Source: Candidatus Omnitrophota bacterium (GTDB lineage: Bacteria; Omnitrophota; Gorgyraeia; Gygaellales; Profunditerraquicolaceae). Taken from it: a DNA stretch of 64,000 nt. Made by a program: the position numbers and the translations under genes. Positions 4,401 to 36,441 of this stretch are shown here, one piece after another. The notes beneath the pieces were generated by a model, which worked only from the letters and a program-made list of their open reading frames with translations, searched no databases and had not been told where the DNA came from. How positions within the stretch are numbered: the first letter of the stretch is position 1; every line of letters begins with the position of its first letter. The DNA lies in the NCBI GenBank assembly GCA_030650425.1, contig JAUSED010000010.1:10104-74103 (forward strand), read 5' to 3'.

Positions 4401-7400
4401 TATCGGAACTGATATAATTATGCCTATCTCTCTCGACTACTCTTAACAAATCATAGGTTACAAAGGTTGCTTTAGTTTTCTTTAAGGCCCTCAGGCTAAT
4501 ACCATCATCACCAAGTTCTAAGGCTCCTTCTTGCCCTTCTATATTTCTTATAACTCTTCCCAGCAGAGAAAAAACAGGTATACTTTCTCCTTTGTTAAGA
4601 GCTGGTATTTTTACTTTTAGTTTAATCACTTTAGAGTTGTCTGTTTCTACGCCAGCCGCTTTAATCTCTTTAACATAAAATTCCCCCTTATTTCCTAACA
4701 TATTGTATAACCCGGAAAATAAATGCTCTCTCTCCAAAAGATATTCCCTTCCGGAAACAATCTCGGCGATCTGGGGATTATTAAAGTTAGAATCTGATTC
4801 CATCTTTTTTATAATGCTTCCTTCTCCGCGGGGTTTGGTAAAATTATCGGCAAGAGGGATAACACCCCACTTCTGCCGGGACTTTTCTTCTTGAGGGATT
4901 CTAAAGGGTTTCGTCTCTGGCGCTCCAGCATACCTATAAATATTAGGCGCCGCTTGCTGCGGGGAATCTACTTTTGAAGAGTAATTGAGAAAAGAATAAA
5001 TCCCAATATAATAAAGTGCCGCAAATAGCAATAGAAAAGGAATAAGAGGCGCATACTCGAAAACCTTAGAAATAAACCCAGTATGCTCCTTATTTACTTT
5101 TTCCGGGCTGCCTATTTCTTGTCCAACCAATATTCTTTCGGCTGTTTCTTTCGAAGGTAGTTCTTTCTTTTCTTCTGCCTCCTTCTGCCATTGAATAATC
5201 AACGCTCTCACCCACTCCAGATCTTCATCAGCATTAATTTTCGATAGATCAAGCGGCTCCAGAGAAATTTTCAACTGCGATCTTCTTGTATGTTGATTGT
5301 ATATAGATGTGCCGTCAGGAAAACTCAGGCGCCCTTTATCAAAGCTCCAACCTTCTATTTTATTTATCTCTCCTACGGGCGAAGAAACAGGTTTTTCCTG
5401 CGCCGACGAGGCGGGGGTATCAGCTAAATTAGAAACGGCCGCATTTCCCGTCCCCTTTTGCTCATTTTTCTCTAACCTCTCTAACAGTTGTGTTATATAA
5501 CCTATAATTTCTTGCCAGTAACGAGTATTTTCTTCTGATTCTAATCGTTTCTTTTCCTTAGTTAAAAACGTTTTTAATTCTTCTCTTGAGGAAAGCGGGA
5601 ATAGCTTGGGATTAATTTTTAATAAAGTCCTCATAGCCTCACGTTTCGCATAAAAGTCACCATCTTTATATTCTCGTAATATTGTAGCCAAAGGGGGTTT
5701 CTCTTTTACATACAATATGTCTTGATGCTGATTGGAGTAATCAAAGTATTTATCAGCTAAGATATCCTTCATTACGCTTTTATCTTCGCCTATCTTGCTC
5801 AAAATACCTCCTGATTTTAATAATGAATCTAAATAATGTGAAAGGGCATTCCGGGATTCTAATCCTAGGGGAACGTACTGTAAAACATGATGAACAAAAA
5901 GTATATCTAAATTACCCACTAAATTAGGCGTTGTTCCTGCTGAAACATCAGCAAGATCAACATCATAGAATTCTAAATGCGAATTCATTCTATCAGAACG
6001 TTTGTAACCTTTTAGCTCTTCCACAACATAAACCTCTTTAAAATAATCAGCCTTTTCTTTATCCGTGAAACCTGCGTTGTCTATAACAATTTTAGGGAAG
6101 ATAATCTGGTTATTCTTTACTCTGTCGTATACTTTATTCGAATAACTCATCACGTCCACTTTAACAGTTATAGCTTTCTCAATATCTTCACCTGGCCTAA
6201 GTTGCTCTAAAAGTATTTTAGGGATCTGGCGGCTAAAATATGCAACGGCTGTAATCGGTTCTTGCCCAGAGGCTGCTCCGATAACTCCGATTGTGATTAC
6301 TTGCTGCTGCCCTGTTCTACGGAATTCACTTAGTTTATCCTTAACCAAATCTCCGAAGCCAACCCTATTAGATATGCTTCTAAGAACATCATCATATCTG
6401 AAGAATTGAGACCATTGGTCAAAGATGAGTTCTACCAATATTTTATTCTTTCTCAATGCTTCAATAAAAGGTTGTTCATTAAAAGAATGCCTGGAATCAC
6501 CTCTTATGCGTGCTAAGACTTCCCATCCACTATGACCTAAGCGCGGAAAGAATTTCCTTTTTTCTTCTTTTATCGCTTTATCGATTTCTTCTTCAAAATT
6601 TGCTAAAACTAAATCAATTCTTTCAAAATCTCCTTTTTCTGTGCCAAAGACGCCAAACAAAGACTGCAATAATTCTTTCTTAACATCATTCGTTATGATT
6701 GGTTTACCTAATCCGGGAATAGATATCATTGGAATGGGAGCTTTTACATTTAACGACTGCTGAAAAGTAAACCGAGATTTTTTCATCAAATCCTTAATTA
6801 CACTTCTTACAGCCATTCCTCTAAAAACACTTACTTCTGCTAATTTCTCATATATTCCTTTTAAATAATAGTTACTTCCTTCTTTTATTTCTATTTGCAC
6901 CGCTGCCTGTAACACTAAATACAGAATTCTATCTTCCGTTTCGTGACCAAAAGCTCTTGGATTGATTAAAATTTGGTTGAATTTCCTTTCTATTGCCACA
7001 ACCGGACCATCTTCTCCTAAATCATAGGCACTTATCCTCCAAGAGGCTAATTTAAATTGATTAGATGTTCCGATTTTATCTAACTCATATTTTGACATGA
7101 ATTTATTGAATTCGTCAACTTGCATAACGCCAATAGCGGATGAGCTAGCTTGAATACCAATAACTAGCTTCTGCGCAATAGGTGCAAAAGAAGAGGCGCC
7201 TGATGGAGAAGGCCTTTCGGCTGGCGAAGCTTGAGACGAAGGTAACCCTTCTGTTATAGTTATATTAGTATCTGATGGGTTCATACCGTTTCCAATAACA
7301 GCTAAGACAGGCATATTATTATCGGTTAAAGGTGAAATACCTTTATCGCCGACTGTTTCAAAAAGACTTGTTGAATCTGTTACTATCTTGATAGGACTGC

Positions 7401-8739
7401 CAGACGTTGGAGAAACGGAAGAGAAAGGTATACCGCCTAGAGATAAGCCTCCGCTAAAATAGCTCCTAATCACCTGGCCAGTAGGAGTATAGGCTGGCTG
7501 TTGGATGTTGTATTCGCCGTCTTTAAAGGATTTTTGGTAGGCTTGGAAGTAGGTGGTTTTGGACCAAGGTTGTTGGGAAATAAGGTTGGTGAGGTTGCGG
7601 GAGTTGATGAGCGCAGAAGCTGCATCAGGGACAGTCCCCTGCGGGGACAGTCCCTGATGCCGAGGGAAAGTGTCCCCTGCTGCTGTTGCGTGTCTAGCTT
7701 TAAACCATTGGGCTAAGATTAAAGAATAATAGACTTGCCTTAAAGGGGCATAGCGTTTGGAGGTGTTTATATCTTTGGTGAGTTTGGGGATGATTAGTTC
7801 TCTGATTAATTGAGAGGAATATTCGTTTAATTGCTTTAGGCGATCATCTTTAAACTGATACTGCGCGTAGGGGACACTTTCCTTTAAAGAGTTCCCTGAT
7901 AGCCCTGACGGAAAATGTCCCCTGCTTTTACTCGAAAGATAATCAGACTCAAGCATTACTTTAAGGGTAGCTTTGTAGATGTAGGCCGACGGTGGCACTT
8001 CGACTCGCTTGCGCTCGCTCAGTGCGCTGGCTTCGCCAGCGGTTTCGCGGATGATGATTTCGCCCGGGACGATCCAAGGACGAGTTAAGGTGGGTATGGT
8101 GATGTTTTCGTTACCTAAGAGTTCACCTGCTTTTTGATAAAGCTTATCCCAGTAAAGCTTACCTTCGGGGGTTTCGGGAGAAGTGAATTTGGCAGTGTCT
8201 TTTTTAAGTTGGAGATCGGCTTCTAGAAGAATCTTACCTACGTCAGTCTTGGCTAAATAATCATCAATAATATTATCCTCTGCATCAGGGCGTAGGTTGA
8301 CCCAGAAGGAGCTGTTGGGAAGGGTAAGGCCGATGAAGAAATAATTTAAGAGAACCTTGGTTTCGTCTTTAAGTTTAGTTTCATCCAAGGGGACACTTTC
8401 CTTTGGGCCAGAAGGGGACACTTTCCTTTGAGTGGCTTCGCCATAGCTCTGACGGAAAGTGTCCCCTTCTGCAGAAGTTGGAAAATGTCCCCTGCTGTTC
8501 TTTTGGGGAAGCTGATCGCCCTTGTCTAAAAGAAGCTTAAAGCTGTTGTTTTCTGGAAGATATTGCAGGGAACGCAGATGCAAGGGGCGGAATTTGTCTG
8601 GGATAAGGGAATTACGGAAGAGAGCGAGATGGCCGGAGATATCCAGCTCGCCGGCGACTTGAGCAAAACCAGACTGCTCAAAAATTAACAAAAAGCAGAC
8701 TAAAAAATAGATAAATTTAGGGAATTTGCGTTTTGGCAT
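1489..8739 (-). CDS. Giant secreted multidomain protein (2416 aa). Signal peptide, transglutaminase-like Cys-His-Asp core, LysM-like segment. N- and C-terminal modules shared with the 44259..49622 paralog.
   Basis: Uninterrupted ORF. N-terminal MPKRKFPKFIYFLVCFLLIF hydrophobic signal. GECDTTSSFVWLMFRYLGV...H...D resembles a transglutaminase-like cysteine protease core. N-terminal ~400 aa and C-terminal ~130 aa align with the second giant ORF. Confidence 0.7.
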   Translation of the reverse strand: MPKRKFPKFIYFLVCFLLIFEQSGFAQVAGELDISGHLALFRNSLIPDKFRPLHLRSLQYLPENNSFKLLLDKGDQLPQKNSRGHFPTSAEGDTFRQSYGEATQRKVSPSGPKESVPLDETKLKDETKVLLNYFFIGLTLPNSSFWVNLRPDAEDNIIDDYLAKTDVGKILLEADLQLKKDTAKFTSPETPEGKLYWDKLYQKAGELLGNENITIPTLTRPWIVPGEIIIRETAGEASALSERKRVEVPPSAYIYKATLKVMLESDYLSSKSRGHFPSGLSGNSLKESVPYAQYQFKDDRLKQLNEYSSQLIRELIIPKLTKDINTSKRYAPLRQVYYSLILAQWFKARHATAAGDTFPRHQGLSPQGTVPDAASALINSRNLTNLISQQPWSKTTYFQAYQKSFKDGEYNIQQPAYTPTGQVIRSYFSGGLSLGGIPFSSVSPTSGSPIKIVTDSTSLFETVGDKGISPLTDNNMPVLAVIGNGMNPSDTNITITEGLPSSQASPAERPSPSGASSFAPIAQKLVIGIQASSSAIGVMQVDEFNKFMSKYELDKIGTSNQFKLASWRISAYDLGEDGPVVAIERKFNQILINPRAFGHETEDRILYLVLQAAVQIEIKEGSNYYLKGIYEKLAEVSVFRGMAVRSVIKDLMKKSRFTFQQSLNVKAPIPMISIPGLGKPIITNDVKKELLQSLFGVFGTEKGDFERIDLVLANFEEEIDKAIKEEKRKFFPRLGHSGWEVLARIRGDSRHSFNEQPFIEALRKNKILVELIFDQWSQFFRYDDVLRSISNRVGFGDLVKDKLSEFRRTGQQQVITIGVIGAASGQEPITAVAYFSRQIPKILLEQLRPGEDIEKAITVKVDVMSYSNKVYDRVKNNQIIFPKIVIDNAGFTDKEKADYFKEVYVVEELKGYKRSDRMNSHLEFYDVDLADVSAGTTPNLVGNLDILFVHHVLQYVPLGLESRNALSHYLDSLLKSGGILSKIGEDKSVMKDILADKYFDYSNQHQDILYVKEKPPLATILREYKDGDFYAKREAMRTLLKINPKLFPLSSREELKTFLTKEKKRLESEENTRYWQEIIGYITQLLERLEKNEQKGTGNAAVSNLADTPASSAQEKPVSSPVGEINKIEGWSFDKGRLSFPDGTSIYNQHTRRSQLKISLEPLDLSKINADEDLEWVRALIIQWQKEAEEKKELPSKETAERILVGQEIGSPEKVNKEHTGFISKVFEYAPLIPFLLLFAALYYIGIYSFLNYSSKVDSPQQAAPNIYRYAGAPETKPFRIPQEEKSRQKWGVIPLADNFTKPRGEGSIIKKMESDSNFNNPQIAEIVSGREYLLEREHLFSGLYNMLGNKGEFYVKEIKAAGVETDNSKVIKLKVKIPALNKGESIPVFSLLGRVIRNIEGQEGALELGDDGISLRALKKTKATFVTYDLLRVVERDRHNYISSDMRETPQLAKEFQILKTNPHLREIKDKLDSAKDAPFEEKIEAVRDIIRNNFIYNKYFDSELASGTYFDWLADTLAEGEKFRGECDTTSSFVWLMFRYLGVDALYAEGYSLGGTNAILKYPGHALILIHDKDFGWRPFDATEFMQEEIRYIGKFVQKESKPFLEKKTAKTEPEKVNKAEKPTKSVFQEAQLAVFKMLGYKEGLKDIVENKKVVDKTRIDALKELRKLKADKQLYDIASKEENSLISLDTTVDDILEVGGGWRLADNALELLRKCDNSSSRYREMVEDKKAYIWARIRALNKLEYSPAEFVDFDRAELIKLEPFFEEFIKKYSGKESVLYSNDETFLKEMVNALKILESEPWSKELKKEAERILEAKELWREKLKKKLAIKTPFFYQSVLHITLKGQSLSLLAFYYYGDRNQYSQIADANEYGLLSEEKNGQTPIGPPGWKIFIPEAKVVEHQVKKGDSIKSLVRQYYGENKGKSYGKRFSPARRIIGYNGLNLPVRLIPGGIMRIPMSTSEWERLQKKTPAEKGKGPNLPKSSGSPLAEEKGTVSNLPDTAASPAQQEPASLAAEVTVELTETYRPITQGEKEAALNKYAQMSEADFSMPIRLNSNNAGALEDGAIFHGTNREFEQFILSPKDMEYTMGLGFYFTDNTEQAQKYALRRTQQKITGNPQVVAARLIRSKLLDCRNNVPDEVINAWLKYLESLSLDWARVALRDRIFTYIRYRRHNKKPILLRQGGGSKETGVDGWFDGITQGFDFRIFILSLGYDGVIGMEGGEGRGDEAVGNHVSIVIFDPENIITYEMLNNFKESRKKNLQSVSSVNSPIILNKDKKGGIDFRALPAVSSPINPAMLKLSPIEINRLSNLNLDAEWAEIENMLKAGIIPSNQRLKEYVASSCLRQALGRQMGKVLGCIANILRMEEERVTETEPELEDMLVLIESGKPENELQLSLAQIQILPREPQLVTP
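7627..7680. repeat. Palindromic repeat, GGGGACAGTCCCC variant, inside giant ORF 1 in-frame
   Basis: cagggacagtcccctgcggggacagtccctgatgccgagggaaagtgtcccctgc. Translated in-frame as GDTFPRHQGLSPQGTVPD. Confidence 0.7.
7870..7925. repeat. Family A palindromic element (GGGGACACTTTCC...GGAAAATGTCCCC) inside giant ORF 1 in-frame
   Basis: ggggacactttcctttaaagagttccctgatagccctgacggaaaatgtcccctgc. Encodes SRGHFPSGLSGNSLKESVPY in the giant ORF. Confidence 0.75.
8389..8495. repeat. Compound family A element (two left arms plus long right arm) inside giant ORF 1 in-frame
   Basis: The same ~107-bp compound element recurs at 12304-12436 and 50308-50412 intergenically. Here it is translated as ...NSRGHFPTSAEGDTFRQSYGEATQRKVSPSGPKESVP.... 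Confidence 0.75.
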
Positions 8740-8755
8740 TTTTAGTTACGCTCCA

Positions 8756-8811
8756 GGGGACACTTTCCTTGAAAGAGTTCCCTGATAGCCCTGATGGAAA
8801 ATGTCCCCTGC
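8756..8811. repeat. Family A palindromic element just upstream of the giant ORF 1 start
   Basis: ggggacactttccttgaaagagttccctgatagccctgatggaaaatgtcccctgc. Confidence 0.75.
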
Positions 8812-8922
8812 GGGGTTTTTTTGCTGCCAGTCGTATGTTAATTCAAGTATACAATATAGGTAAGAGGATTCAAGGGGAAAGCGGGGATTTAGGGAAAGCG
8901 CTTTCTTTCGTAGCGAACTCGA

Positions 8923-9023: not shown

Positions 9024-10154
9024 ATGTTAAATTTCTCGATAGCTAAAAGCCTGAATGAAATTCCGCGCCAAGAGTGGGATAATCTTTTTGGTGAAGAGCT
9101 GATTGAAAGTTATGGCTACCTGAAAACGTTAGAAGCTGGCGGAGTTAAGGAATTTGCTTTCGGATATCTAGTTGGGAAAAGAAATAGCCACATCGTTCTC
9201 ATCCTCCCCTTTTTCATTATGGACTTCTCCTTCGCGATGCTAGCCCCTGAATTCCTACACAAACTAGCCAATATCTTTAACCGTTGGTTAAGCATGAAAA
9301 TAATTTTCTTAGGCTCTCCTACTACCGAAGGATTCTCAATGGGCCTATCACCCAATGAAGATGCCGAAGCAATTTTAGATCAAGCTATAGAAGAATTACG
9401 GGCATTTTCTAGAAAAGAAAAGATCGCGGCTATGGCCTTTTATAATCTCTCGTCAAAATACCTGAAATTAGCTGAATACCTCAAGCGAAAAAAATTCCTG
9501 AAAATGGAGACATTGCCTACTACTACGATTGATATAAAAGCGGAGTCACTTGAAGAATACATCCAAGGGTTGGGGAAAAATACCCGGAAAGACTTAAAGA
9601 AAAAATTACGCCGCTCTCAAGAACTCGTCCAGCTTAAAACCGAAACACGCGTGGAGATATCCGATATCATTGACGATGTTTACAGGTTATATATGAATAA
9701 CGTGAATGACGCGGATGTGCATTTTGAAACCCTGACCAAAGAATTCTTCCTGAATATCTGCCGGAATATGCCCGGCGTGGCTAAATATTTTATTACTTAC
9801 GATCAACATAAAATCGTAGCCTTTAACTTATGTCTAATCAAAGATGGAGTTTTTATTGATAAGTTTATCGGATTCGATTACGCGGTGGCCCACCAGTATC
9901 ATCTTTACTACACTACCTTCTGCCAGAATATGGACTGGTGCATTAAAAACGAGATGCGAGTTTATCAGCCGGGATTTAGCGACTATCATCCTAAAATACG
10001 GCTGGGCGCGCAGCTTATACCGCTGGATATTTATGCCAAGGCCTTTAATCCACTGCTCAATGCATTGATCAGGCTAATTAAACCATTAATTGAACCGAAA
10101 AACTTAGATCCTGTACCTAAGGATTTTCACCCTACAACCATAAACTTTTCATAA
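9024..10154 (+). CDS. FemAB-like / GNAT-fold acyltransferase-family protein (PF04339-like)
   Basis: Only plus-strand gene in the window. The ORF track start at 8733 runs through the repeat elements, so the likely real start is ATG 9024 (MLNFSIAKSLNEIPRQEWDNLF...). Family assignment is from general similarity only. Confidence 0.4.
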   Translation: MLNFSIAKSLNEIPRQEWDNLFGEELIESYGYLKTLEAGGVKEFAFGYLVGKRNSHIVLILPFFIMDFSFAMLAPEFLHKLANIFNRWLSMKIIFLGSPTTEGFSMGLSPNEDAEAILDQAIEELRAFSRKEKIAAMAFYNLSSKYLKLAEYLKRKKFLKMETLPTTTIDIKAESLEEYIQGLGKNTRKDLKKKLRRSQELVQLKTETRVEISDIIDDVYRLYMNNVNDADVHFETLTKEFFLNICRNMPGVAKYFITYDQHKIVAFNLCLIKDGVFIDKFIGFDYAVAHQYHLYYTTFCQNMDWCIKNEMRVYQPGFSDYHPKIRLGAQLIPLDIYAKAFNPLLNALIRLIKPLIEPKNLDPVPKDFHPTTINFS

Positions 10155-12241
10155 TCCGGAAACCGCTGTAATAGTTTATCTTTCAAGAGGATATTCTGCC
10201 GGTACTCCAAACGCAGGTCAAGGTTAAGCAGCTTGATCGCTTCCTCACGGGCCCTTTTCAATAATTGCATCTGAGTGAGGGGATTGGCGATCTTTAATTC
10301 GCTTAAACCATGCTGTTGGCGGCCAAAAAACTCACCCGGCCCTCTAATTCTTAAATCCTCTTCGGCAATCTTAAAACCGTCATTGTATTTAACCATAGCA
10401 TCCAGGCGCGCCTTAGCCTCATCTGTCTGGCTATCGGAAATTAACACGCAAATAGATTCGTCTTTACCTCTACCTACCCTGCCGCGCAATTGGTGCAGTT
10501 GACTCAAGCCAAAACGCTCAGCATGCTCAATAATCATACAAGTGGCGTTAGGAATATCAATACCTACCTCTAACACCGTAGTAGAGACCAAAACATTAAT
10601 CTTAGCTGACTTAAATCCTGACATCACCGCATCCTGTTCTTCTCGCTTAAGCCTGCCATGGATCAAGCCTACTTTGAAATCCTTAAATTCTCCTGCTTTT
10701 AACTCCGCGTACATTTTTTTAGCTCCGGAGATATCCAAGACGTAAGATTCGTCAATCACCGGATAAATGATATACACCTGCCGGCCTAATTTTAGTTCTT
10801 CTTTGGCCAGCTTATAGGCCTCGCTTCTATGCGCCTGCTCGAATAAAAGCGTTTTTACCGGAAGCCTACCTTGCGGAAGCTCATTAATGATCGAAACATC
10901 TAAATCTCCGTAAAGGGTAATCGCTAAGGTCCGCGGGATAGGGGTGGCAGTCATAATCAGAACATCCGGATTTACGCCTTTCGCCGGAAGAAGCAGCCGC
11001 TGGCCCACGCCGAATTTATGCTGTTCGTCGATCACCACCAGCCCCAAGTTTTTAAACTTAACCCCCTGCTCCAAAAGCGCGTGCGTGCCAATCAGCAAAT
11101 CTATGCTTCCTTCTCTTATATCCTGATATATTTTATCTCTCTCTTTCTTGGCGGCACTACTAGTTAATAAACCAACTGCGATTTGTTTCTTCTGACTTCT
11201 GATTTCTGACAGCTGACTTCTGATTTTTTCAAAATGCTGCCAAGCCAATATTTCCGTAGGCACCATCAAAGCCGCCTGATAACCTCCCTGAATGGCCATT
11301 AAACTGGTAGCAGTTGCTACCACTGTCTTACCCGAACCCACATCTCCCTGCAAGAGACGCTGCATAGGGCGAGCTAAAGCCATATCTGATTTTATTTCGG
11401 CGATAACTTTTTCTTGGGCGCTAGTTAGGTGAAAAGGAAGCCCGGAAAGAAAATCTACTACTAATATCCCGCCTACCTTATGCGCGATACCTAATTTATC
11501 TTTCCTTTTTAATTTACGCAAAACCAGCGGCAACTGGAATAAAAAGAATTCTTCAAAGCTTAGGCGCGTGTAGGCTTCTTTTTGCAGGCTGAGGCTTTCC
11601 GGAAAATGTATATTTAATAAAGCCTTGGCTAAATTTAAGAGGTTGTTCCTCTGCCTTATATCATAAGGAAGGCATTCTTTTAATTTAGATAAATATTCAT
11701 CCAGGGCATTTTTGATCAGGCGGCGCAAAGTCCGCTGCGAAAAACCCGCGGGTAAAGAATAAACCGGGACCAAGCGGCCGACTGAAAGCTGCGCGTCAGT
11801 TTCATCGCTGATCATTTCGAACTCAGGATTGCTCATCTGGAGCCGCGAGCCATAGACTTCGACTTTTCCGTATAAGATAACTTCGCTTTCCGGCTTGAAA
11901 TATTCTTTAAGGTACGGCTGATTAAACCAAACGCAAGTTACTCTTCCCGTATCATCAGCTACACTGACTTCGGTAATATTAAACCTGCGCCTGCCTTGCC
12001 TGCCGGCAGGCAGGCGCCAAGAATCATGCTGGCCCAGGGCTAAAACCTTAGCTTTGATCGTCTGGATTTCGCCGGGCTTTAGTTGAGAGATAGGAACAAA
12101 ATTAGTGCGGTCTTCGTACCTGCGGGGGAAATAATAAAACAGGTCGTTAACGGTATTTATTCCGGAGCTGGCAAGATTCTTCGCCCGCTTCGGGCCTACG
12201 CCTTTAAGGTACCTTATAGATGTGTGTTCCGGATTATTCAT
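10127..12241 (-). CDS. recG: ATP-dependent DNA helicase RecG
   Basis: 704 aa. N-terminus MNNPEHTSIRYLKGVGPKRAKNL (HhH), wedge domain, helicase motifs GDVGSGKT, DEQHKFGV and QLRGRVGRG. Confidence 0.9.
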   Translation of the reverse strand: MNNPEHTSIRYLKGVGPKRAKNLASSGINTVNDLFYYFPRRYEDRTNFVPISQLKPGEIQTIKAKVLALGQHDSWRLPAGRQGRRRFNITEVSVADDTGRVTCVWFNQPYLKEYFKPESEVILYGKVEVYGSRLQMSNPEFEMISDETDAQLSVGRLVPVYSLPAGFSQRTLRRLIKNALDEYLSKLKECLPYDIRQRNNLLNLAKALLNIHFPESLSLQKEAYTRLSFEEFFLFQLPLVLRKLKRKDKLGIAHKVGGILVVDFLSGLPFHLTSAQEKVIAEIKSDMALARPMQRLLQGDVGSGKTVVATATSLMAIQGGYQAALMVPTEILAWQHFEKIRSQLSEIRSQKKQIAVGLLTSSAAKKERDKIYQDIREGSIDLLIGTHALLEQGVKFKNLGLVVIDEQHKFGVGQRLLLPAKGVNPDVLIMTATPIPRTLAITLYGDLDVSIINELPQGRLPVKTLLFEQAHRSEAYKLAKEELKLGRQVYIIYPVIDESYVLDISGAKKMYAELKAGEFKDFKVGLIHGRLKREEQDAVMSGFKSAKINVLVSTTVLEVGIDIPNATCMIIEHAERFGLSQLHQLRGRVGRGKDESICVLISDSQTDEAKARLDAMVKYNDGFKIAEEDLRIRGPGEFFGRQQHGLSELKIANPLTQMQLLKRAREEAIKLLNLDLRLEYRQNILLKDKLLQRFPDYEKFMVVG

Positions 12242-12303
12242 ATTTAAAAATATTATACTGTAAGACTAGGGAGTTATCTATAAAAATAGTTTTCCTTCAT
12301 CCC

Positions 12304-12436
12304 AGGGGACACTTTCCTTTGGGCCAGAAGGGGACACTTTCCTTTGGGCCAGAAGGGGACACTTTCCATTGAGTGGCTTCGCCATAGCCCTGACGGAAAG
12401 TGTCCCCCTCTGCGGAAGTTGGAAAATGTCCCCTGC
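12304..12436. repeat. Compound family A element (three left arms), intergenic
   Basis: ggggacactttcctttgggccagaa x2 ... ggaaagtgtcccc...ggaaaatgtcccctgc. It generates spurious ORFs 12274..12594 and 12344..12550. Confidence 0.8.
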
Positions 12437-12472
12437 TGCTGGGGTTGCCATAAAATATATTTTCCTAGGGAC

Positions 12473-12609
12473 TTGAAAAACGGAAAAAATATGGCATACT
12501 TATATTGCAGGTGGAAGAGAAGCCTGCGAACAAGGAGGTTAGGTAGATAGCGGAAGCTAGAAGGCCTATCACCTACAAGAAAACCCCGAATCACTCGGGG
12601 CTTTTTTGT
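12473..12609 (+). ncRNA. Candidate small RNA, copy 1: promoter-like TTGAAA..TACTTATATT, ~90-nt body, intrinsic terminator
   Basis: Conserved with 55588-55713: GCATACTTA(T)ATTGC ... GATAGCGGAA(A)GCTA..AGGCCTATCACCTACAA(A)AAACCCCGA-loop-TCGGGG-T6. No plus-strand ORF nearby. Confidence 0.45.
12581..12609 (+). terminator. Rho-independent terminator (CCCCGA-ATCAC-TCGGGG plus TTTTTTG)
   Basis: GC stem followed by a T6 run on the plus strand. Confidence 0.7.
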
Positions 12610-12759
12610 TGACAGTAACTCTTTTACCTTCTATACCACCATATCCAGCCAAGTATGCGCACGGCTTAACCACTCATTCTCAAATTCGCGGCCGGTGAGC
12701 GCTGACTGATAGCGATAATCTTCTTTGATGCAATAGACGTAGACACTCATTAGTTTAAA

Positions 12760-13032
12760 TTAAAAATGAGAAAAATAAACACAGCTCTTAAAAGGTAAAT
12801 TCGGCCTAAGGTCTCTTATGGGAACACAGGCAAATTGTTTCCCGGAAACTGTTTTATGTATACCTATCCTATGGTCATAGACAGGACAAAAATATTTTCC
12901 TGCTTCATCCCTCTTTAATTGCTCGCAAGGGTCTCCGTCAAAAGCGCCGCAACAGGCTCCGCACCTCCTGCAGAGGGCCTCATATCTTGCCTGCTCTTCT
13001 TCCTGTTTTCGTAAATACGCTGTTTCATCCAT
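12760..13032 (-). CDS. YkgJ-family Fe-S/zinc cysteine-cluster protein (CxxCxxCC)
   Basis: LCRRCGACCGAFDGDPCEQL and FCPVY motifs. Paralog at 53716..54093. Confidence 0.55.
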   Translation of the reverse strand: MDETAYLRKQEEEQARYEALCRRCGACCGAFDGDPCEQLKRDEAGKYFCPVYDHRIGIHKTVSGKQFACVPIRDLRPNLPFKSCVYFSHF

Positions 13033-13054
13033 AAAGATATTATACTCGATAAAA

Positions 13055-13095
13055 CAAGAATCCCAAGCTTTTTTCGGACTTGGGATTATTTGTTC
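13055..13095 (-). terminator. Hairpin AATCCCAAG-tccgaaaaaa-CTTGGGATT plus CTTGTTTT (minus sense), downstream of the DUF2950 gene
   Basis: Member of the recurrent CCCAAGC...GCTTGGG hairpin family. Confidence 0.45.
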
Positions 13096-13099
13096 CGCA

Positions 13100-13145
13100 A
13101 TCCTCTCAACTACAAGTAGTTAGATACAACATCTACGGTTTTTTT
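13100..13145 (-). repeat. Conserved post-stop motif AAACCGTAGATGTTGTATCTAACTACTTGTAGTTGAGAAG, copy 1
   Basis: Near-identical copies start at or near the stop codons at 13179, 33000 and 34320. Internal palindrome AACTAC..GTAGTT. Confidence 0.6.
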
Positions 13146-13178
13146 GAAAATGAAGAAAAGCCGCTACCCGCCGAGCTA

Positions 13179-14147
13179 TTACTGTGCCCTGCTCCATGTC
13201 GAATCGGGATTATAACCTACCATAGCTCCCAGGATCTTATCGGTATCCGGCCCGAGATCTTTCTCATAGACAATACCATTCTGATTAACTATGAATGTCA
13301 TTATTCCTGAAACTGCGTATTCGGCCGGCCATGCTGCCAGCGCAAAACCAGCAACCATGTGTTCGTTAATCAAGTAGCTGTACGCGCCGCCCGGAGCGTT
13401 CGCGCCTTGAGCCGTGAGTATTTTATAATGGTAGCCGTGGTATGGCGCGGGAGATATCATGCAGACCTCACCGACCACGTAACCCTCCTTGCTGGCTGCG
13501 ACAAACAACGGGCCAAGGGGGCTCGGCGGTTCTCCTTCTGTCTCTTCCCAGAAAAGGCCGTCCCGTCTACCAGGCTCGCTGCAAAACTTCCGGGCGTATT
13601 GCATAACCCCATCCATGTCGCGGTCAATGCCGGCATACTCTCTCTGGGCCTGCACAAAAGCCTGACAAGAACTTATAGCGCGAAGCTCATTACGCCCGAT
13701 CCTGCGCTTCAAGAGTTCCTGAAGCCCATCGGCGGTATTAAAAACCCAGCCTGCCTCTTTCTTAACAATAGGAACAGCCATAGGATAACTATCTTTACCG
13801 AGAATGACAGAGACCGTTCCGTTATCGTCTACAAAATTTACTTTCTCCTTATAACTTTTTGCGAATTTAGCGCGGTTATTCTTATCAGCCACCGCATCTC
13901 CCGAATCGATTATATCCTTTCCTTCAGGGCCAAAAATGGCAAGCATTTTTTCCGCGTCATTGCTTTTAGCCGCCTTAACAAGCATTTCCATTGCCTCTTC
14001 CGGAGATTGAAATACGGTTTGAGCCTGGACCCCCCCAGGCGCAAAAAAGACAAAAAGCGTAACGGCCGTAAATAAGAAAACTCCAATAAACGCGGGCATT
14101 ATAAAACAAGCGAATTTTCTTTTCCTAAAATTATTTAATATAACCAT
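13179..14147 (-). CDS. DUF2950-family secreted protein
   Basis: Signal peptide, then QTVFQSPEEAMEMLVKAAKSNDAEKMLAIFGPEGKDIIDSGDAVADKNNRAKF, which is typical of DUF2950. Partnered with a DUF3300 gene. Confidence 0.6.
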   Translation of the reverse strand: MVILNNFRKRKFACFIMPAFIGVFLFTAVTLFVFFAPGGVQAQTVFQSPEEAMEMLVKAAKSNDAEKMLAIFGPEGKDIIDSGDAVADKNNRAKFAKSYKEKVNFVDDNGTVSVILGKDSYPMAVPIVKKEAGWVFNTADGLQELLKRRIGRNELRAISSCQAFVQAQREYAGIDRDMDGVMQYARKFCSEPGRRDGLFWEETEGEPPSPLGPLFVAASKEGYVVGEVCMISPAPYHGYHYKILTAQGANAPGGAYSYLINEHMVAGFALAAWPAEYAVSGIMTFIVNQNGIVYEKDLGPDTDKILGAMVGYNPDSTWSRAQ

Positions 14148-14204
14148 CTTCTCCCTCCCGATTATTTAAATTTATACTTATAATTCCACAATACGGCTTA
14201 GGGT

Positions 14205-15611
14205 TCACCGGCGGTTGTCTCTCCGGTCTTCACCTCTGCGGTCCTGTCTGCTATCGCTCCTGCTTCCGCCGCCCCCTCTACTACCGTCGTCGCCTTGGCG
14301 CGAACGTCCGCTACCTCCCCTAACCCTAATCTCCTGTGTGCTGGATTGCCCGCGAAAGCTAGCTGCGCGTTCGCTTCCGCCTCTACCCACGCCGCTAAAG
14401 ACGTTGACATTTTCTCTGCCGCGGCCGGAAATTACAGGCCTCGCGGCTTCCTGAAGCTGAGCGCCACGGGATAGAGAACCCGTTGCCTGCCGAGGCCTTT
14501 CGCTAACTTGCGCCCTATCTCTGCCTCTCAATTCAACCCTCGGAATCTCTCTGGATTGCCTGCCACGGCCACTGGATCCTCTCATTTGTTCCGAAGGCCT
14601 TGCGCCTACCGCGGTTCCAGCGCCGCTAATACGATCCGACGGCCCTGACTGAACTTGAGCGCGGCCGCGAAATTCAGAAGCAGCTTCCGCCCTCTCTGAA
14701 GACCTGGAAACACGCCGGCCCTCAAAACGCTGAGCCGTAATTGAATCGCGATACTTCACGCCCCTGCGATACCGAGAGTCATGATGCCAGGCGTCATATT
14801 TTTTCCCCCTGTCGACATGAAAACGGTTCACGTGCCTAAAGTTCTTGACTACAAAAACATTAAAATTGCTGACATGGATAAATACGCCATGGAAACGCCA
14901 GTCGCAAAAAAATGATCCCCATCCCCACCACGCGTTGACATAATACCCTCTCAAAAACGGGCCTCTTATATATCCGGGATAATAGCAGTAATATGGCGGA
15001 TAATCCGGATACCACCAGGTACCGTATATTACACCAGGGTCATATACCGGCACATATACTATTTTCGGTTCGGCTGACTCAATGACTATTATTTTTGTTT
15101 CAGTATCAACCTTAACGGCCTGCTCTTTGCCTGATTTAAGATTACCCTGCGCGTAAGCTTTTTGTCTCAGGCGCTGGACGGAATCCATCACATCGCGCTG
15201 CTGGGCAAGAAAAGCGTTTCCTAATTTAGTGGTCCACTCCAACTGGCTATCCATCATTATCAATACATCAGGGAACTGAAGCAGCGCCTTAACACTCGGC
15301 TCCCAATCCCTGTCAATAGCCGCATCTATCAAGGCCTGTTCCTTTAACCCGGAGTTATCCTTTATAAACCTGCTAGCAGAAACGATATCCAAGGGGTAAG
15401 TCGCAGCCGTGAGAACCTGCGCCAGAAGCGCGTCAGGATACAAAGCAATGGGCGCGAGCATCTGGTCTAATTCTTCCGGCCTGAAAGCTTGCTCAATATT
15501 CTCTGCAGGCATGGTATCGGTATATTCCTGCGCCCTCGCCGCAAACGGAAGAACGAGTAAGGATAAAAAAACGAATAGCATCGCGCGTTTAAGATTTCTT
15601 TCCTTCTTCAT
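14205..15611 (-). CDS. DUF3300-family secreted protein with long R/G/S/D-rich low-complexity C-terminal tail
   Basis: LAPIALYPDALLAQVLTAATYP hallmark. C-terminal ~170 aa is RG/SR-rich. Confidence 0.65.
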   Translation of the reverse strand: MKKERNLKRAMLFVFLSLLVLPFAARAQEYTDTMPAENIEQAFRPEELDQMLAPIALYPDALLAQVLTAATYPLDIVSASRFIKDNSGLKEQALIDAAIDRDWEPSVKALLQFPDVLIMMDSQLEWTTKLGNAFLAQQRDVMDSVQRLRQKAYAQGNLKSGKEQAVKVDTETKIIVIESAEPKIVYVPVYDPGVIYGTWWYPDYPPYYCYYPGYIRGPFLRGYYVNAWWGWGSFFCDWRFHGVFIHVSNFNVFVVKNFRHVNRFHVDRGKKYDAWHHDSRYRRGVKYRDSITAQRFEGRRVSRSSERAEAASEFRGRAQVQSGPSDRISGAGTAVGARPSEQMRGSSGRGRQSREIPRVELRGRDRAQVSERPRQATGSLSRGAQLQEAARPVISGRGRENVNVFSGVGRGGSERAASFRGQSSTQEIRVRGGSGRSRQGDDGSRGGGGSRSDSRQDRRGEDRRDNRR

Positions 15612-15729
15612 AGCAATATCCCCTTTCTAATCTTAAAAAGTGAGTATAATATTCTGCCCTTATTGACTTTATTATAAACATAACCGCCTGAAAATGAATT
15701 GGCTTATTCAGCTTATTTCTGACTTTTTT

Positions 15730-15800
15730 CTACTTATTTGAAAAAATCTATGGTCAAACTATGTGATCATAGATTTTCGACAAGGGGATGACCTCTCTGT
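15730..15800 (-). repeat. Partial copy (3' half) of the GAGAGGTC/CCTCGTAAGGACG element, in the 5' leader of the DUF3300 gene
   Basis: cgacaaggggatgacctctctgtaagcagctacagg matches half of the full element at 30085-30185. Confidence 0.5.
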
Positions 15801-15884
15801 AAGCAGCTACAGGAAAAATAATCAAATCTTTTCCATAAATTTGTCCGCCTATGGCCATTTTGCCGTATGAGTATGATTCGATCT

Positions 15885-16577
15885 TCATTCCGCCACCTTA
15901 AGATGCTTTAAAAACCAACCCTTTGCCAGTTCAGCGACTTTCTCCAATGCGCCTGGCTCCTCAAAAAGATGCGTCGCGCCGGGTACAATTATAAGTTCTT
16001 TTTCCGCTTTAATTTTATTTAACGCTTCTTCATTTATCTTAATCACCTGGTGATCATTGCCGCCAACAATTAAAAGGACGGGCGCTTTCACGGTAGAAAG
16101 GCTCTCGCCGGCCAAATCAGGCCTGCCGCCTCGGGAAACGATCGCGTGAATACTTTCTACTGCCTTTGCCGCAGCTTTTAACGCGCTGGCTGCCCCGGTA
16201 CTTGCGCCGAAATATCCTATGTCGAAATTCTTCGTCGAAGGATTATGACTTAACCAATCCGTCGCGCTAAGTAAACGTCCCGTAAGTAGCTCTATATCGA
16301 ATCTGAACTGCGCGGTTATGGCGTCCAACTCATCTTCATCTTTAGTTAGAAGATCGACCAATAATGTTGCTATGAATGCCTTATTTAAATACTCTGCCAC
16401 TAACCTATTTCTCGGACTAAACCTGCCGCTTCCGCTGCCATGAGAAAAAATAACGGCATATTTAGCTCCGGGCGGCACGATTAAATCGCCAAAGATACTT
16501 GCCTTTCCGCTCTTGATCTCAATGTTCTTCGAGATCACTATGCGGGGCCTTTTTAAATTCAAGGACTTTTTCAACAT
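15885..16577 (-). CDS. Dienelactone hydrolase-family alpha/beta hydrolase
   Basis: AVIFSHGSGSGRFSPRN, GYFGASTGAASAL nucleophile elbow, and a GATHLF His motif. Confidence 0.7.
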   Translation of the reverse strand: MLKKSLNLKRPRIVISKNIEIKSGKASIFGDLIVPPGAKYAVIFSHGSGSGRFSPRNRLVAEYLNKAFIATLLVDLLTKDEDELDAITAQFRFDIELLTGRLLSATDWLSHNPSTKNFDIGYFGASTGAASALKAAAKAVESIHAIVSRGGRPDLAGESLSTVKAPVLLIVGGNDHQVIKINEEALNKIKAEKELIIVPGATHLFEEPGALEKVAELAKGWFLKHLKVAE

Positions 16578-16923
16578 TTATCACCAATTCTCTCTCTGCT
16601 TGCGGCGAAGGCTCCTCTTTTTCCAACTTCCGGTCATACCCGTCAAGAATCGCGATTTCTCTCAAATCCTCTCTCTTACCCAACAACTGATAACCGACAT
16701 CGCGTTCTTTATCCCATACAATAACCCCGATACCTGCTTTATTTTTAAGATTCATTACCGTACCGGGACAGAACCATCCGGCTACCGATAATTGTCCTTT
16801 AGGGCTAATGCCGATTTTAGTTGCTACAGTAAGATGCGGATACATATCATCAGCAGTGGTTAAAAAAACATACCCTAATTCCTGCCCTAGATTAACTGCT
16901 TTCTCAATCAATTCATTTCTCAT
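16519..16923 (-). CDS. Pyridoxamine 5'-phosphate oxidase-like FMN-binding split-barrel protein
   Basis: 134 aa. GYVFLTTADDMYPHLTV pattern. Assignment is tentative. Confidence 0.45.
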   Translation of the reverse strand: MRNELIEKAVNLGQELGYVFLTTADDMYPHLTVATKIGISPKGQLSVAGWFCPGTVMNLKNKAGIGVIVWDKERDVGYQLLGKREDLREIAILDGYDRKLEKEEPSPQAERELVINVEKVLEFKKAPHSDLEEH

Positions 16924-17047
16924 TTTTAATGCTCCTTAGTTCTAACTGCCTTTTTTAAAATCTCCGTGACTTCTTCATCGGAAGCCTGTTCAATAAGAGA
17001 CAATGCGCGATTTTCCCACTTATTCTCCTCTTGCCTTTATGCATAAC

Positions 17048-17834
17048 TCATCCTGAGGAATGCAAGCGTGAATATAACACTTGGATCGTATTGCCCGGTA
17101 AGCGGCTGAACGTAATCTTCGCCGGTGATTCAATGAGATGAAAGAAACCGTTTCGTATAAGCACGCCAATATTAAAAAAATCTCTCGCCAGCGGTACGCT
17201 GAATTCTGCCGGAGCGTGTTCGCGCTTGCGTAAAAGGTCTGCTCTTAAAATAGCGAGTTCTGCCATAGATACGCTGGAAGGGATAGGGTAATCGAAGATA
17301 TCTGCCGGCACTTTCAGAAAATCCCCATGCGAAGATTCGATCCACTCGCCATCTACCCTGTATTCTTGAACCTTGGAGAAAAACTCATCCATTTCGTCCG
17401 TAAACATACCTGTCTCTTCATGCAAATAGGTTAAAAATAACAGCACAGATGCCGAATCCTGTAAAAAACCTTCTTCTTGAACATGAGAATCTATCGAACT
17501 ATGATAAATCTCACTGCCGAAACAATTAACATCTCTTAATCGCCGGAAAATATCCTCTGCCTTGCTAAGGAATTTTTTATCTTCAAGATACCTAAATGGA
17601 AACAAAGTTTGCGTTAAGATAGCCCGCTATTTCTTTATTGTTGAATGCTTCCCGCGCCATCACATGACACCAATGGCACGTGGAATATCCTATTGAAGCA
17701 AAAATGATCTTGTTTTCGGATCGGGCATGCTCAAGGACGCTCTCGTCCCATTCCTGCCACCATACGGGGTTATCCTTATGCTGTTGTAGATATGGCGAGC
17801 TTGCCTTGCCTAAGTTATTCTGTGTAAAAACCAT
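17048..17834 (-). pseudogene. Fragmented DUF255/YyaL-like thioredoxin-domain gene (frameshift and truncation)
   Basis: N-terminal part SPYLQQHKDNPVWWQEWDESVLEHARSENKIIFASIGYSTCHWCHVMAREAF...NANFVSI ends at 17592. It continues in another frame (17048..17605). Total ~310 aa versus ~680 aa typical for YyaL. Confidence 0.5.
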
Positions 17835-17874
17835 CGAAAAAATTATCCCCCGCATTTTATATTTTTTAAACAAC

Positions 17875-18291
17875 TTAGGCAGGCTCGGAAACTTTTTCCA
17901 GAATTTTACAGGCAGTCTCACGGCTCCCCCGTAATACAATATCGCCGAGAGAAAGCATCCCCACCAGTTCTTTGTCATGATTTATAACGGGGAGCCTTCG
18001 TATTTTTTTATTTTCCATTTTATCGGCAACTCTTCCTACCTCTTCATCCTCGAAGCACCATTCGACTTTCGAAGACATTATCTCCTTAACCTTCGTAGAG
18101 CTGGGGTCTTTTCCCTCGGCTGTCAGGCGGACCGTTATGTCGCGATCCGTCACGATACCAACGAGACGGTTATTTTCACACACTGGCAATACTCCGATAT
18201 TGAGATCTCTCATCTTTTGCGATACCTCCTTAACGGATGTTTCCGGCCTTACAACTTCGATCTTCGTCGTCATCTCATTTTTTACCTGCAT
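17875..18291 (-). CDS. CBS domain pair protein
   Basis: Two CBS motifs: GVLPVCENNRLVGIVTDRDI and RLPVINHDKELVGMLSLGDI. Confidence 0.7.
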   Translation of the reverse strand: MQVKNEMTTKIEVVRPETSVKEVSQKMRDLNIGVLPVCENNRLVGIVTDRDITVRLTAEGKDPSSTKVKEIMSSKVEWCFEDEEVGRVADKMENKKIRRLPVINHDKELVGMLSLGDIVLRGSRETACKILEKVSEPA

Positions 18292-18315
18292 AGCATCCTC
18301 CTTTAATTTCTTAAT

Positions 18316-19098
18316 TCATTTAATAAATATCTCCTTAAAAAATGCTTTCATTGCTTCCCAAGAACGCATATCTGCCTCCCTGTTGTATGCCAACCCCTTG
18401 GAAGGATCATTGCCCGAATCAGGATTGGTAAAACTATGCACCGCATTTCCATAAATATTCATCTGCCAGTCACAATTCGCGGCGCGCATTTCATTCTGAA
18501 ACGCGGCCACCTGTTCTTGAGGCACAAGCGGGTCATCCGCGCCATGACAGACCAATATTTTTGCTCTGATATTTTTGGCGTCTTCGGGATGCGGCGTATC
18601 GAGGTTGCCGTGAAAACTTACCGCACCGGATAGATCAGCGCCGCCGCGCGCAAGCTCTAATACCGTGCCTCCTCCGAAACAATATCCAATAGCCGCGGTG
18701 CGTGTTACATCTACAAACTTACACTTCTTTAGCTCTGCAAGGCCTGCTTTTGCGCGCTCGCGCAGCAATTGCCTATCAGACCGATAAAAAGTCGCCTGTT
18801 GAGCGGCTTCTTTTGTGTCTTTCGGCCTTATGCCCTTGCCGTAAATATCAGCGCAAAAAGCAACATAACCGAGAGCCGCTATTTCTTGGGCGCGCCTTTT
18901 GACATAAGGCCCTATTCCTGTCCATTCATGCACGATCAAAACCCCGGGTACCTTGTCTTTACGAGAATCATCATAAACCAGGTAACCTTCAAGCACGGTG
19001 TTGTCCTGTTTATACTCTACTGTTTCCGTCTGCATAGCCGCGTAAGCCTTTATGGAAGAAGACAAAAATATTAAAATAAATAGAACAAGATACTTCAT
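18316..19098 (-). CDS. Secreted dienelactone hydrolase-family protein
   Basis: Likely start MKYLVLFILIFLSSSIKAYA (signal peptide). GYCFGGG nucleophile motif and CHGADDPLVP. Confidence 0.7.
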   Translation of the reverse strand: MKYLVLFILIFLSSSIKAYAAMQTETVEYKQDNTVLEGYLVYDDSRKDKVPGVLIVHEWTGIGPYVKRRAQEIAALGYVAFCADIYGKGIRPKDTKEAAQQATFYRSDRQLLRERAKAGLAELKKCKFVDVTRTAAIGYCFGGGTVLELARGGADLSGAVSFHGNLDTPHPEDAKNIRAKILVCHGADDPLVPQEQVAAFQNEMRAANCDWQMNIYGNAVHSFTNPDSGNDPSKGLAYNREADMRSWEAMKAFFKEIFIK

Positions 19099-19264
19099 CC
19101 TGCACTTTTCCTCCGGATAAGCTGCCTTAATTACCATGACTATACAGAGATAAACTTAATTGGTGAATAGGCTGAATCTGTTTTTCTTTGACTTTTTTCT
19201 ATTAGGATAGAATTGAATTATATAACGTGGTTTCTATGTATTAGGAAAGGAGCCGGCCCTCAGC

Positions 19265-19340
19265 ATACAGCTATTGGAAAATTTGAGAGGTCAGCCTCGT
19301 AAGGACGGGAGTAATATTCGACAAGAGGAAATATACTGCT
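19265..19340 (-). repeat. Partial copy (5' half) of the GAGAGGTC/CCTCGTAAGGACG element, in the 5' leader of the hydrolase gene
   Basis: aaatttgagaggtcagcctcgtaaggacgggag matches half of the full element at 30085-30185. Confidence 0.5.
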
Positions 19341-19559
19341 CCCTCCTAAGGAACCTTTCCCGTTGGCCGCTCATTTTTCTTTTCTTTATCGCCTTGATTT
19401 CCTTTAATAATTACAAATATAAAGAATAATACTACTGCCCCTAAAAACATATACACAGGCCAATCTTGCCACAGGTTGCCAGTCATATTACCCCTCCTTA
19501 TTATTTCATCGTTATTTGATACTAATAATAAGCGTTTAAGAATGCCGTGCTCCAGCCTG

Positions 19560-36436: not shown

Positions 36437-36441
36437 CGGAA

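Follow-up and report, generated by a model that had tools for sequence, protein, structure and literature searches.

The window analysed here, the 64,000 nt from 10,104 to 74,103 of contig JAUSED010000010.1 of a Candidatus Omnitrophota bacterium, holds two plus-strand units that look alike, copy A (∼12472–12609) and copy B (∼55556–55713). They raise two questions: whether they are copies of one small RNA gene, as a first-pass annotation had proposed when it read them as a duplicated promoter-to-terminator unit, and what the sequence that they have in common might be for. On comparative evidence we put the probability at roughly 85% that both are genes, paralogous to each other, in a family of non-coding small RNAs (sRNAs) conserved in Omnitrophota. 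The family is previously undescribed and has no entry in Rfam. Bacteria of this phylum are widespread and often ultra-small, and most are uncultivated; a literature search found no regulatory RNA described for them.

Two related units and their family

The two copies are 78% identical in an alignment of 199 columns, and the similarity runs from just 5′ of the −35 box to just 3′ of the U-run. For the 17-mer AGGCCTATCACCTACAA the window has exactly two occurrences against 0.10 expected, and a search of the window with the family profile finds copies A and B (E = 8e-14 and 2e-13) and nothing else, the next match having E = 7.7. The core common to both reads AGGAGG / GATAGC-GGAA(A)-GCTA / GGCCTATCACCTACAA. 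Each copy has a −35-like TTGAAA or TTGATT paired with a −10 box, and each ends in a canonical intrinsic terminator, as the annotation had also read them (Table 1). Sites of the form CTTGA-N17–20-ATACT number five in the window against 0.5 expected, and the three outside the two copies stand ahead of protein-coding genes in the correct orientation, which argues that this is a genuine promoter type of the source genome. Folding of both RNAs is much more stable than that of shuffled sequences, with z = −5.4 to −5.5 for predicted RNA A and −5.6 to −6.1 for predicted RNA B. A possible sigma-54 promoter in TGGCATACTTATATTGC was also considered and rejected: its GG–GC distance exceeds the required one by 2 nt, and the GG is missing from copy B.

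Further members were collected in two scans. The genome scan, with one genome per species and the pattern ATAGCGGAA-N4–9-GGCCTATCACC, gave 33 loci. Of these, 32 are genuine and lie in metagenome-assembled genomes (MAGs) labelled Candidatus Omnitrophota/Omnitrophica or, in a few cases, 'uncultured Planctomycetales'; the one match in Rhizobium is a false positive in coding sequence. A looser pattern (GGAGG...GCGGAAGC...CCTATCACC) matched 66 metagenome contigs, about 50 of them genuine. A viral contig collection scanned for the unit gave 0 matches. Loci and contigs outside the window are numbered from L001 onward.

Every genuine member has the same anatomy: a promoter, a 5′ region of 25–45 nt, (A)AGGAGG, a linker of 7–13 nt, GAUAGC-GGAA-GC..., then (A)GGCCUAUCACCUACAA, an A-tract and a terminator, and the core keeps a constant orientation relative to promoter and terminator in all of them. 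The promoter, TTGNN-N16–19-NATACT, is present in 62 of the 64 members with enough upstream sequence, and a hairpin followed by a U-run closes all 63 members that were folded. The terminator stems vary (CCCCGA, CCCCGG, CCCCCUA, GACACCU, ACACCGCCC, UCCCGC...) and pairing is always kept, which makes the terminator stem the sole place where pairing visibly survives sequence change. With this recurrence and the conserved synteny described below, the annotation's proposal of an independently transcribed sRNA in two copies, with a predicted length of ∼90–100 nt, gains considerably from comparison.

The members fall into three types. In type A (50/64, including copy A) the 5′ region is purine-rich and variable, and the −35 box is preceded by an A/T-rich stretch, which in copy A is AAAATATATTTT. 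The promoter architecture of copy A is present in 48 of the 50 type A members and resembles the ribosomal RNA operon (rrn) promoters of related genomes, CTTGACA-N17-TATACTT. Type B (11/64, including copy B) has a conserved 5′ box, GCGUUUACUCA, which can be written (A/G)CGUUUACUCA, and nine of the 11 carry the palindrome GAAAGCGCTTTC ∼20 nt 5′ of the −35 box, which no type A member does. Type C (3/64) comes from one lake lineage, where it occurs at contig ends in several identical copies, and has no representative in the window.

The type C copies deserve a separate remark. They were seen in L015, L016 (at both ends) and L032, and also in L045, L078, L081 and L084 (lake MAG JBAYMS01 / Ga0172381), and are identical across ∼170 nt, promoter included. 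Being identical and at contig ends, they look like a multi-copy repeat that breaks the assembly. The genes directly after them on the same strand, as read from the translations, are bipA/typA with an ABC-F gene, and an M48 peptidase.

Rfam 15 covariance models, run over the whole window at gathering thresholds, returned only LSU rRNA, 5S rRNA and two nhaA-I matches. Permissive scans of 68–301 nt around both loci gave merely sub-threshold, terminator-driven matches, and no known family matches the units. A small signal recognition particle (SRP) RNA, with which the units were compared by eye, was rejected, as they lack an AGCA/GGAAGCAGCC motif and a model match.

It could be argued that there is no functional RNA at all, and that the conservation reflects DNA-level signals (a bidirectional terminator, a promoter or operator) or a mobile, REP-like repeat. 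The terminator can indeed serve the convergent genes, and a REP-like repeat family abuts copy A. The invariant block, however, sits between promoter and terminator and outside both, and its orientation to them is constant. In 64 kb the unit occurs twice, both times with its promoter conserved, against 37 copies of the unrelated, true REP-like repeat of the same window. The unit is also syntenic rather than mobile, with no match among viral contigs. We regard this explanation as very improbable, and the annotation's own worry that the units might be fragments of a REP or terminator family is not borne out. A duplicated prophage att site was rejected as well, given that the copies, 43 kb apart, are only 78% identical, have promoters within the repeat, are syntenic elsewhere and have no viral-contig carrier.

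Judged from its sequence, the RNA is non-coding, in agreement with the first reading of the core. The AAGGAGG box is a consensus ribosome-binding site with an AUA codon 8–9 nt downstream, as would suit the messenger of a tiny peptide started at this perfect Shine-Dalgarno (SD) box. In 57 of 63 members, however, no ATG, GTG or TTG lies 4–13 nt past GGAGG, and the longest open reading frame (ORF) per member has a median of 8 aa. The spacing from the hairpin to CCUAUC alters the frame in 17 of the 63 while the nucleotides stay invariant, and the frame of copy B meets a stop after five codons, so that a peptide is extremely unlikely. As to the strand, the plus strand folds better in 54 of 61 members, and the U-run is perfect on the plus strand alone.

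Table 1. Features of the two units in the window
Feature	Position	Strand	Remarks
Copy A promoter	12473–12500	+	−35 TTGAAA 12473–12478; 16-nt spacer with TG; −10 CATACT 12495–12500
Copy A-specific 5′ hairpin UUGCAGGU / GCCUGCGA	12505–12529	+	purine-rich loop GGAAGAGAA; region variable across type A
RNA A (predicted), ∼100 nt	12507–12609	+	predicted start ∼7 nt past the −10 box
SD-like box AACAAGGAGG	12529–12538	+	GGAGG near-invariant across the family
Hairpin GATAGC-GGAA-GCTAGA	12546–12561	+	GNRA tetraloop; GATAGCGGAAGC invariant in 49/49 aligned members
Invariant 3′ block GGCCTATCACCTACAA	12563–12578	+	includes AUCACCU, equal to 16S nt 1531–1537
Copy A intrinsic terminator	12579–12609	+	A-tract; stem CCCCGA/TCGGGG 12584–12600; TTTTTT 12602–12607
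Palindrome GAAAGCGCTTTC	55556–55567	.	presumed transcription-factor site, ∼20 nt 5′ of the copy B −35 box
Copy B promoter	55588–55615	+	−35 TTGATT 55588–55593; −10 CATACT 55610–55615
RNA B (predicted), ∼90 nt	55622–55713	+	start inferred
Type B 5′ box GCGTTTACTCA	55623–55633	+	candidate seed; predicted single-stranded (unpaired in the minimum free energy fold)
Copy B core	55638–55683	+	AGGAGG 55638–55643; GATAGC-GGAAA-GCTATT hairpin 55650–55666; GGCCTATCACCTACAA 55668–55683
Copy B intrinsic bidirectional terminator	55682–55713	+	stem CCCCGA/TCGGGG 55688–55705; TTTTTT 55706–55711

The invariant core and its possible partners

Two folds compete for the core. Single-sequence thermodynamics favours the short hairpin GAUAGC-GGAA-GCUAUU, with a lower helix that reaches GGCC(UA) and an outer AGG/CCU helix. 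The first-pass annotation had instead paired GGTnGATAG with CTATCACC, and this stem can form: RNAalifold, run on the family alignment, prefers it (GAUAG/CUAUC). The two pairings are mutually exclusive, and over the 63 members the mean pair probability is 0.95 for the short hairpin against 0.02 for the alternative stem, the closing pair of the hairpin exceeding 0.5 in 60 of them. Covariation speaks for neither, because no compensatory change was found for either fold and the paired columns are invariant or one-sided.

The 5′ strand GAUAGC never varies, whereas its 3′ partner does (CUAUU, CUAAC, CCAUC, CAAUC, CCGUU, CUUUC). Nearly all members have the loop GGAA, copy B has the 5-nt GGAAA and L112 (8080–8135, minus strand, at the usual location after pgi-dus) has GAAA, which points to a GNRA-like loop. 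Additional complementarity of the linker to the 3′ strand is weak (mean z = −0.74).

What characterizes the core, then, is its primary sequence. No variation is seen in GATAGCGGAAGC or (G)CCTATCACCT among 49 aligned members, at only 62–67% identity of adjoining RecG proteins, and the whole invariant core of ∼35–45 nt lies between promoter and terminator. Part of this invariance is imposed by the search patterns, but the blocks left free by each pattern are likewise invariant. Some 35 invariant bases next to a RecG of that identity is the level usual for housekeeping RNAs or riboswitch aptamers. A core conserved as primary sequence without compensating pairs suggests a recognition handle for a conserved partner, and its length, the missing covariation, the rrn-like promoter and an SD-like box without an ORF together favour a sequence-specific partner in the core machinery over a seed-type regulator. 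Our first guess, tentative and drawn entirely from such comparisons, is that the RNA may act in trans and that its invariant core may be bound by the translation apparatus or by some factor with affinity for the 16S rRNA 3′ end.

An ordinary base-pairing sRNA with a conserved scaffold seems to us about equally likely. Its seed would be the type-specific 5′ end (GCGUUUACUCA in type B, the purine-rich leader in type A), and the 3′ module would be a scaffold that stabilises the RNA or receives a chaperone. Among bacterial sRNAs that possess both a promoter and a terminator, base-pairing regulators are the majority; the type B 5′ box is conserved in 11 members and predicted to be unpaired; the paralogs differ in 5′ ends and promoters and have a common 3′ end, as OmrA/OmrB do; and an operator common to type B and giant surface-protein genes suggests a regulon. 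On the other hand, an invariant non-seed module of 35–45 nt at 62–67% RecG identity would be unusual, and the sequence of the 5′ region varies within type A. Target prediction had been foreseen by the annotation as a check. In ∼0.7 Mb of DNA, which is too little for targets to be excluded, it shows no enrichment of sequences complementary to the type B box or to CCUAUCACCU. Pairing with the start region of recG is not consistent either (mean z = −0.1), and a search of the window and L001–L033, a tiny sample, yielded neither Hfq nor ProQ homologues.

Two incidental complementarities of the type B box may be recorded. The sole non-self 10-mer complementary to it, at L031 6346 (+), overlaps a fabF-like start codon (GAUGAGUAAACGU) and is within chance. 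The box is also complementary to UGAGUAACGCGU, which we take to be a conserved 16S segment; by our arithmetic this too is within chance.

A further possibility raised by the core is a sponge for CsrA/RsmA, like CsrB or RsmY/Z, whose GGA motifs (AAGGAGG, the GGAA loop, the 5′ region) would bind CsrA dimers. Two GGA are invariant and lie ∼20 nt apart, one within the loop of a hairpin, the other flanked as ACAAGGA, and the mean of 3.2 GGA per RNA exceeds the 2.1 of shuffled sequences. This excess is nevertheless owed to the two invariant motifs: the variable 5′ region has 0.65 against 0.56, type B has no further GGA, and the loop is GAAA in one member (L112). Loops of 4 nt closed by C–G also make poor sites for CsrA. 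None of the Csr and Rsm models of Rfam matches, and tblastn of the window and L001–L033, a weak test as these are not whole genomes, finds no csrA. A sponge of this kind is therefore, in our estimate, most unlikely.

Likeness of the core to the 3′ end of 16S rRNA

It is a likeness in sequence that makes us name the translation apparatus first. On contig L062, 5.6 kb from a member of the family, lies a bona fide 3′ end of 16S rRNA (small subunit (SSU) model positions 880–1533, 651 bits) that reads AAGUCGUAACAAGGUAGCCGUAGCGGAAGCUGCGGCUGGAUCACCUCCUUUCU. Between the RNA and this 16S there are three collinear exact blocks, namely (CGU)AACAAGG, UAGCGGAAGCU, which is the top of helix 45 (h45) with its GGAA loop, and AUCACCU (nt 1531–1537), and the distance from the loop to AUCA is 12 nt (range 11–14) in the RNA and 11 nt in the 16S. 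CCUCC of the 16S is replaced by CCUAC, and an inserted AGG creates AAGGAGG. Outside the family the 11-mer UAGCGGAAGCU occurs only at the L062 16S end (1.37 Mb, both strands). In chains of exact blocks the L062 16S end ranks best or second-best among ∼19,000–22,000 background windows, and 0–3 of 10,000–20,000 dinucleotide shuffles reach its score.

With the terminal ∼45 nt of 16S rRNA (the 'colicin fragment' region) the RNA thus has in common AACAAGG, a GGAA hairpin with a C–G closing pair, and AUCACCU 11–12 nt past the loop. Unlike that region, it has 7 extra nt in the 5′ strand, including the AGG of the SD-like box, a promoter and terminator of its own, CCUAC for CCUCC and U for G1530; it has no SSU covariance-model match and does not follow the h45 variants of relatives.

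A number of observations weigh against the likeness. Under lenient Smith-Waterman scoring the L062 16S end is not first among the 22,102 windows but takes, with different queries, ranks three to six. The RNA goes unmatched by the Rfam SSU model, also when 68 nt are searched at E ≤ 10, and the link made by nhmmer is confined to the 11-mer (E = 10). Four more 16S 3′ ends from probable relatives, reached via homologues of an intron-encoded homing endonuclease, read GUACCGGAAGGUGC in L102, L106 and L108 and GUAUCGGAAGGUGC, with the tail GGAAUACCUCC, in L103. Because these ends differ from that of L062, the RNA is more constant than h45, and the exact 11-mer match is special to L062. Shuffles reach the score in 11–58 of 10,000 cases against L102 and L106, and in a fraction of 0.05–0.10 against L103. 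Copy B gives only p = 0.08 in shuffles against 16S, because of its GGAAA loop. G1530, important for the binding of Era, is U in the RNA, and in the predicted fold both AGGAGG and UCACCU would be hidden, being paired with each other. Finally, the comparison with 16S was conceived after seeing the sequence, so the p-values flatter it. We conclude that the likeness of the core to the 16S 3′ end, at p ∼1e-4 against one cognate 16S and ∼1e-3 against others, is suggestive only. Were the RNA an ordinary base-pairing regulator, the likeness would be incidental, an anti-SD-like CACCU masking the SD-like box next to a generic GNRA hairpin. As a separate observation, the 16S 3′ end of L103 (∼6412–6490) has GGAAUACCUCCUUU in place of the near-universal GGAUCACCUCCUUU.

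The factors that read this part of 16S rRNA are known. Era recognises GAUCA, in which both adenines weigh most, CCUCC and the base of h45, and h45 with the tail suffices to stimulate its GTPase; RbfA and KsgA bind the same h45/tail element (PMC10582724).

Each gene is predicted to be transcribed from its own sigma-70-type promoter to a bidirectional intrinsic terminator, giving an RNA of ∼90–100 nt. The paralogs differ in 5′ end and promoter, A having an rrn-like promoter after an A/T-rich stretch and B a palindromic operator, and share the invariant 3′ module of AGGAGG, a GNRA hairpin on GAUAGC and then GGCCUAUCACCUACAA. A mechanism built on the likeness would run as follows. The module would be the recognition handle, with a partner from the translation apparatus, and would imitate the 16S 3′ end through the AACAAGG linker, a GGAA hairpin resembling helix 45 and a correctly spaced AUCACCU; the anti-SD core is spoiled (CCUAC for CCUCC) and a perfect SD box added. 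The RNA might then titrate a factor that binds helix 45 and the tail (for example Era, RbfA or KsgA), or it might dock via AAGGAGG on the anti-SD of 30S subunits, and the type-specific 5′ ends may contribute base-pairing targets. In this specific form, a trans-acting imitation of the 16S 3′ minor domain that regulates the making of 30S subunits or initiation, either through capture of a factor such as Era, RbfA or KsgA or through occupation of the anti-SD, the proposal is speculative and we consider it rather unlikely, clearly more so than the general idea of a partner in the translation apparatus. Neither era nor ksgA nor rbfA was seen adjoining the family members.

Related principles are known from other RNAs. 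6S RNA imitates open promoter DNA, and CsrB/RsmZ imitate mRNA leaders. Like these protein-sequestering mimics, the present RNA is small, free of ORFs, independently transcribed and apparently strongly expressed, as far as sequence can tell, and its conserved part resembles a natural ligand of the core machinery, here putatively the 16S 3′ end. It is unlike them in that no model of those families matches, that the putative mimicked ligand is rRNA helix 45 with the tail, and that the likeness is statistically modest. Some ribosomal proteins and rRNA methyltransferases, with ksgA and ermC as examples of translational autoregulation, have rRNA-mimicking mRNA leaders, in which, as putatively here, a short RNA copies an rRNA site and is bound by an rRNA-binding protein; those leaders act in cis, on the mRNA of the very protein that binds them, whereas the sRNA unit has no same-strand downstream gene. 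OmrA/OmrB and PrrF1/PrrF2 are paralogous sRNA pairs, and the alpha-proteobacterial 'cuckoo' (CcsR/alpha-r14) RNAs carry anti-SD motifs. With these the family has in common at least two copies per genome, common modules with different ends and promoters, and an anti-SD-like UCACCU. It differs in that the common part is the 3′ 45 nt, invariant over far deeper divergence, in the absence of an Rfam model match, and in the additional SD-like box.

No trans-acting RNA that mimics the 3′ end of 16S rRNA turned up in a literature search. If the likeness is functional, this would be the first trans-acting rRNA 3′-end mimic, and imitation of the 16S 3′ end would be for ribosome making what 6S RNA is for RNA polymerase. 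If it is not, the family remains a useful marker and a handle for metatranscriptomics.

Two other links to rRNA operons were considered and rejected. A decoy for rrn boxB–boxA antitermination does not fit, as the boxA of these genomes, G(U/C)UCUUUGACAA, does not resemble the RNA. A general association of the family with rRNA operons does not hold either, since adjacency to 5S is found only in L062 and L074. In L062 the sRNA (1065–1150, +) is convergent with the 5S gene (1252–1368, −) at a distance of ∼100 nt, and L074 has the same layout. With so little space between them, the rRNA operon and the sRNA of this lineage probably have one bidirectional terminator in common. In L106 an unrelated promoter-to-terminator unit lies just downstream of 5S rRNA (11430–11525), with TTGAAA-N17-TATAAT, ∼60 nt and then GGGAACC...GGTTCCCTTTTTT.

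Genomic setting and a candidate regulon

Type A is syntenic. At 20 sites it is divergent from recG, with rsmD and coaD beyond, and on its other side it is convergent with dusB (16 sites) and pgi (11 sites). Copy A of the window retains recG, and its convergent genes are a 39-aa ORF, a 90-aa ORF, DUF2950 and DUF3300; copy B has as neighbours the genes of a 208-aa membrane protein and of an isochorismatase-family protein. The terminators of both copies are usable from the minus strand too, and the transcripts of the convergent genes probably end there as well.

At nearly all type A and type B loci the gene downstream of the unit is on the opposite strand, which argues that the unit is neither a cis leader nor a riboswitch. 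The same arrangement could suit a device in which the module controls its own terminator and the read-through is antisense to the convergent genes, and in one genome (type C: L015, L016) same-strand genes do lie directly behind the unit, as a 5′ leader would require. The downstream genes vary, however, from dusB–pgi in most cases to DUF2950/DUF3300 for copy A and the isochorismatase-family gene for copy B; those behind the type C copies are mutually unrelated, and no candidate anti-terminator against the CCCCG stem was found in the sequence. We see little likelihood in a cis-acting or antisense device.

The clearest difference between the copies lies upstream. Exact copies of GAAAGCGCTTTC occur in the window at 8894–8905, 49698–49709 and 55556–55567, three where our arithmetic gives ∼0.008 by chance, and a copy with one mismatch lies at 61708–61719. 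The palindrome is placed ∼20 nt 5′ of a CTTG(A/T)-N17-(C/T)ATACT promoter, and besides copy B this arrangement stands ahead of two giant ORFs, 1489–8739 (2416 aa) and 44259–49622 (1787 aa), which encode secreted proteins with paralogous signal peptides. The ORF 60949–61500 is probably preceded by the same arrangement. On this sequence evidence sRNA B, the two giant-protein genes and a likely fourth gene form a candidate regulon of a putative transcription factor. Together with the different promoters of A and B, the operator common to B and the giant-protein genes suggests that the same core is deployed under two regimes. A genome would then carry at least two differently regulated copies of the RNA, and as giant surface-protein genes are typical of the phylum, the operator that they and one copy have in common makes a first regulon testable.

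The gap between recG and sRNA A is filled by one cluster of the REP-like interspersed inverted repeat, GGGGACACTTTCC ... GGAAA(A/G)TGTCCCC, whose 37 copies in the window compare with 0.9 expected. They are found at 7665–8808, 12305–12433, 36362–36967, 38975–41802, 48616–48913 and 50308–50411. Several lie inside the giant ORFs 1489–8739 and 44259–49622, both of which are still open. The recG gene itself appears to be leaderless (window 12241–12280): TATAAT lies 6–8 nt 5′ of the ATG, with no space for an SD sequence, and the same start is seen in seven related loci (L009, L012, L014, L018, L021, L025 and L030).

Elsewhere in the window, the two nhaA-I (Na+) riboswitch matches above the gathering score lie at 26524–26579 and 29924–29970 (−), with 47.0 and 47.3 bits. 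The end of an rRNA operon occupies 61849–64000 on the minus strand, with 5S at 61849–61965 and the 3′ portion of 23S; contigs that match the window break off at the rRNA operon. This 23S is split by insertions, one of 752 nt, with LAGLIDADG homing-endonuclease ORFs at 62560–63099 and 63447–63986, close homologues of which, at up to 93% identity, are widespread in metagenomes.

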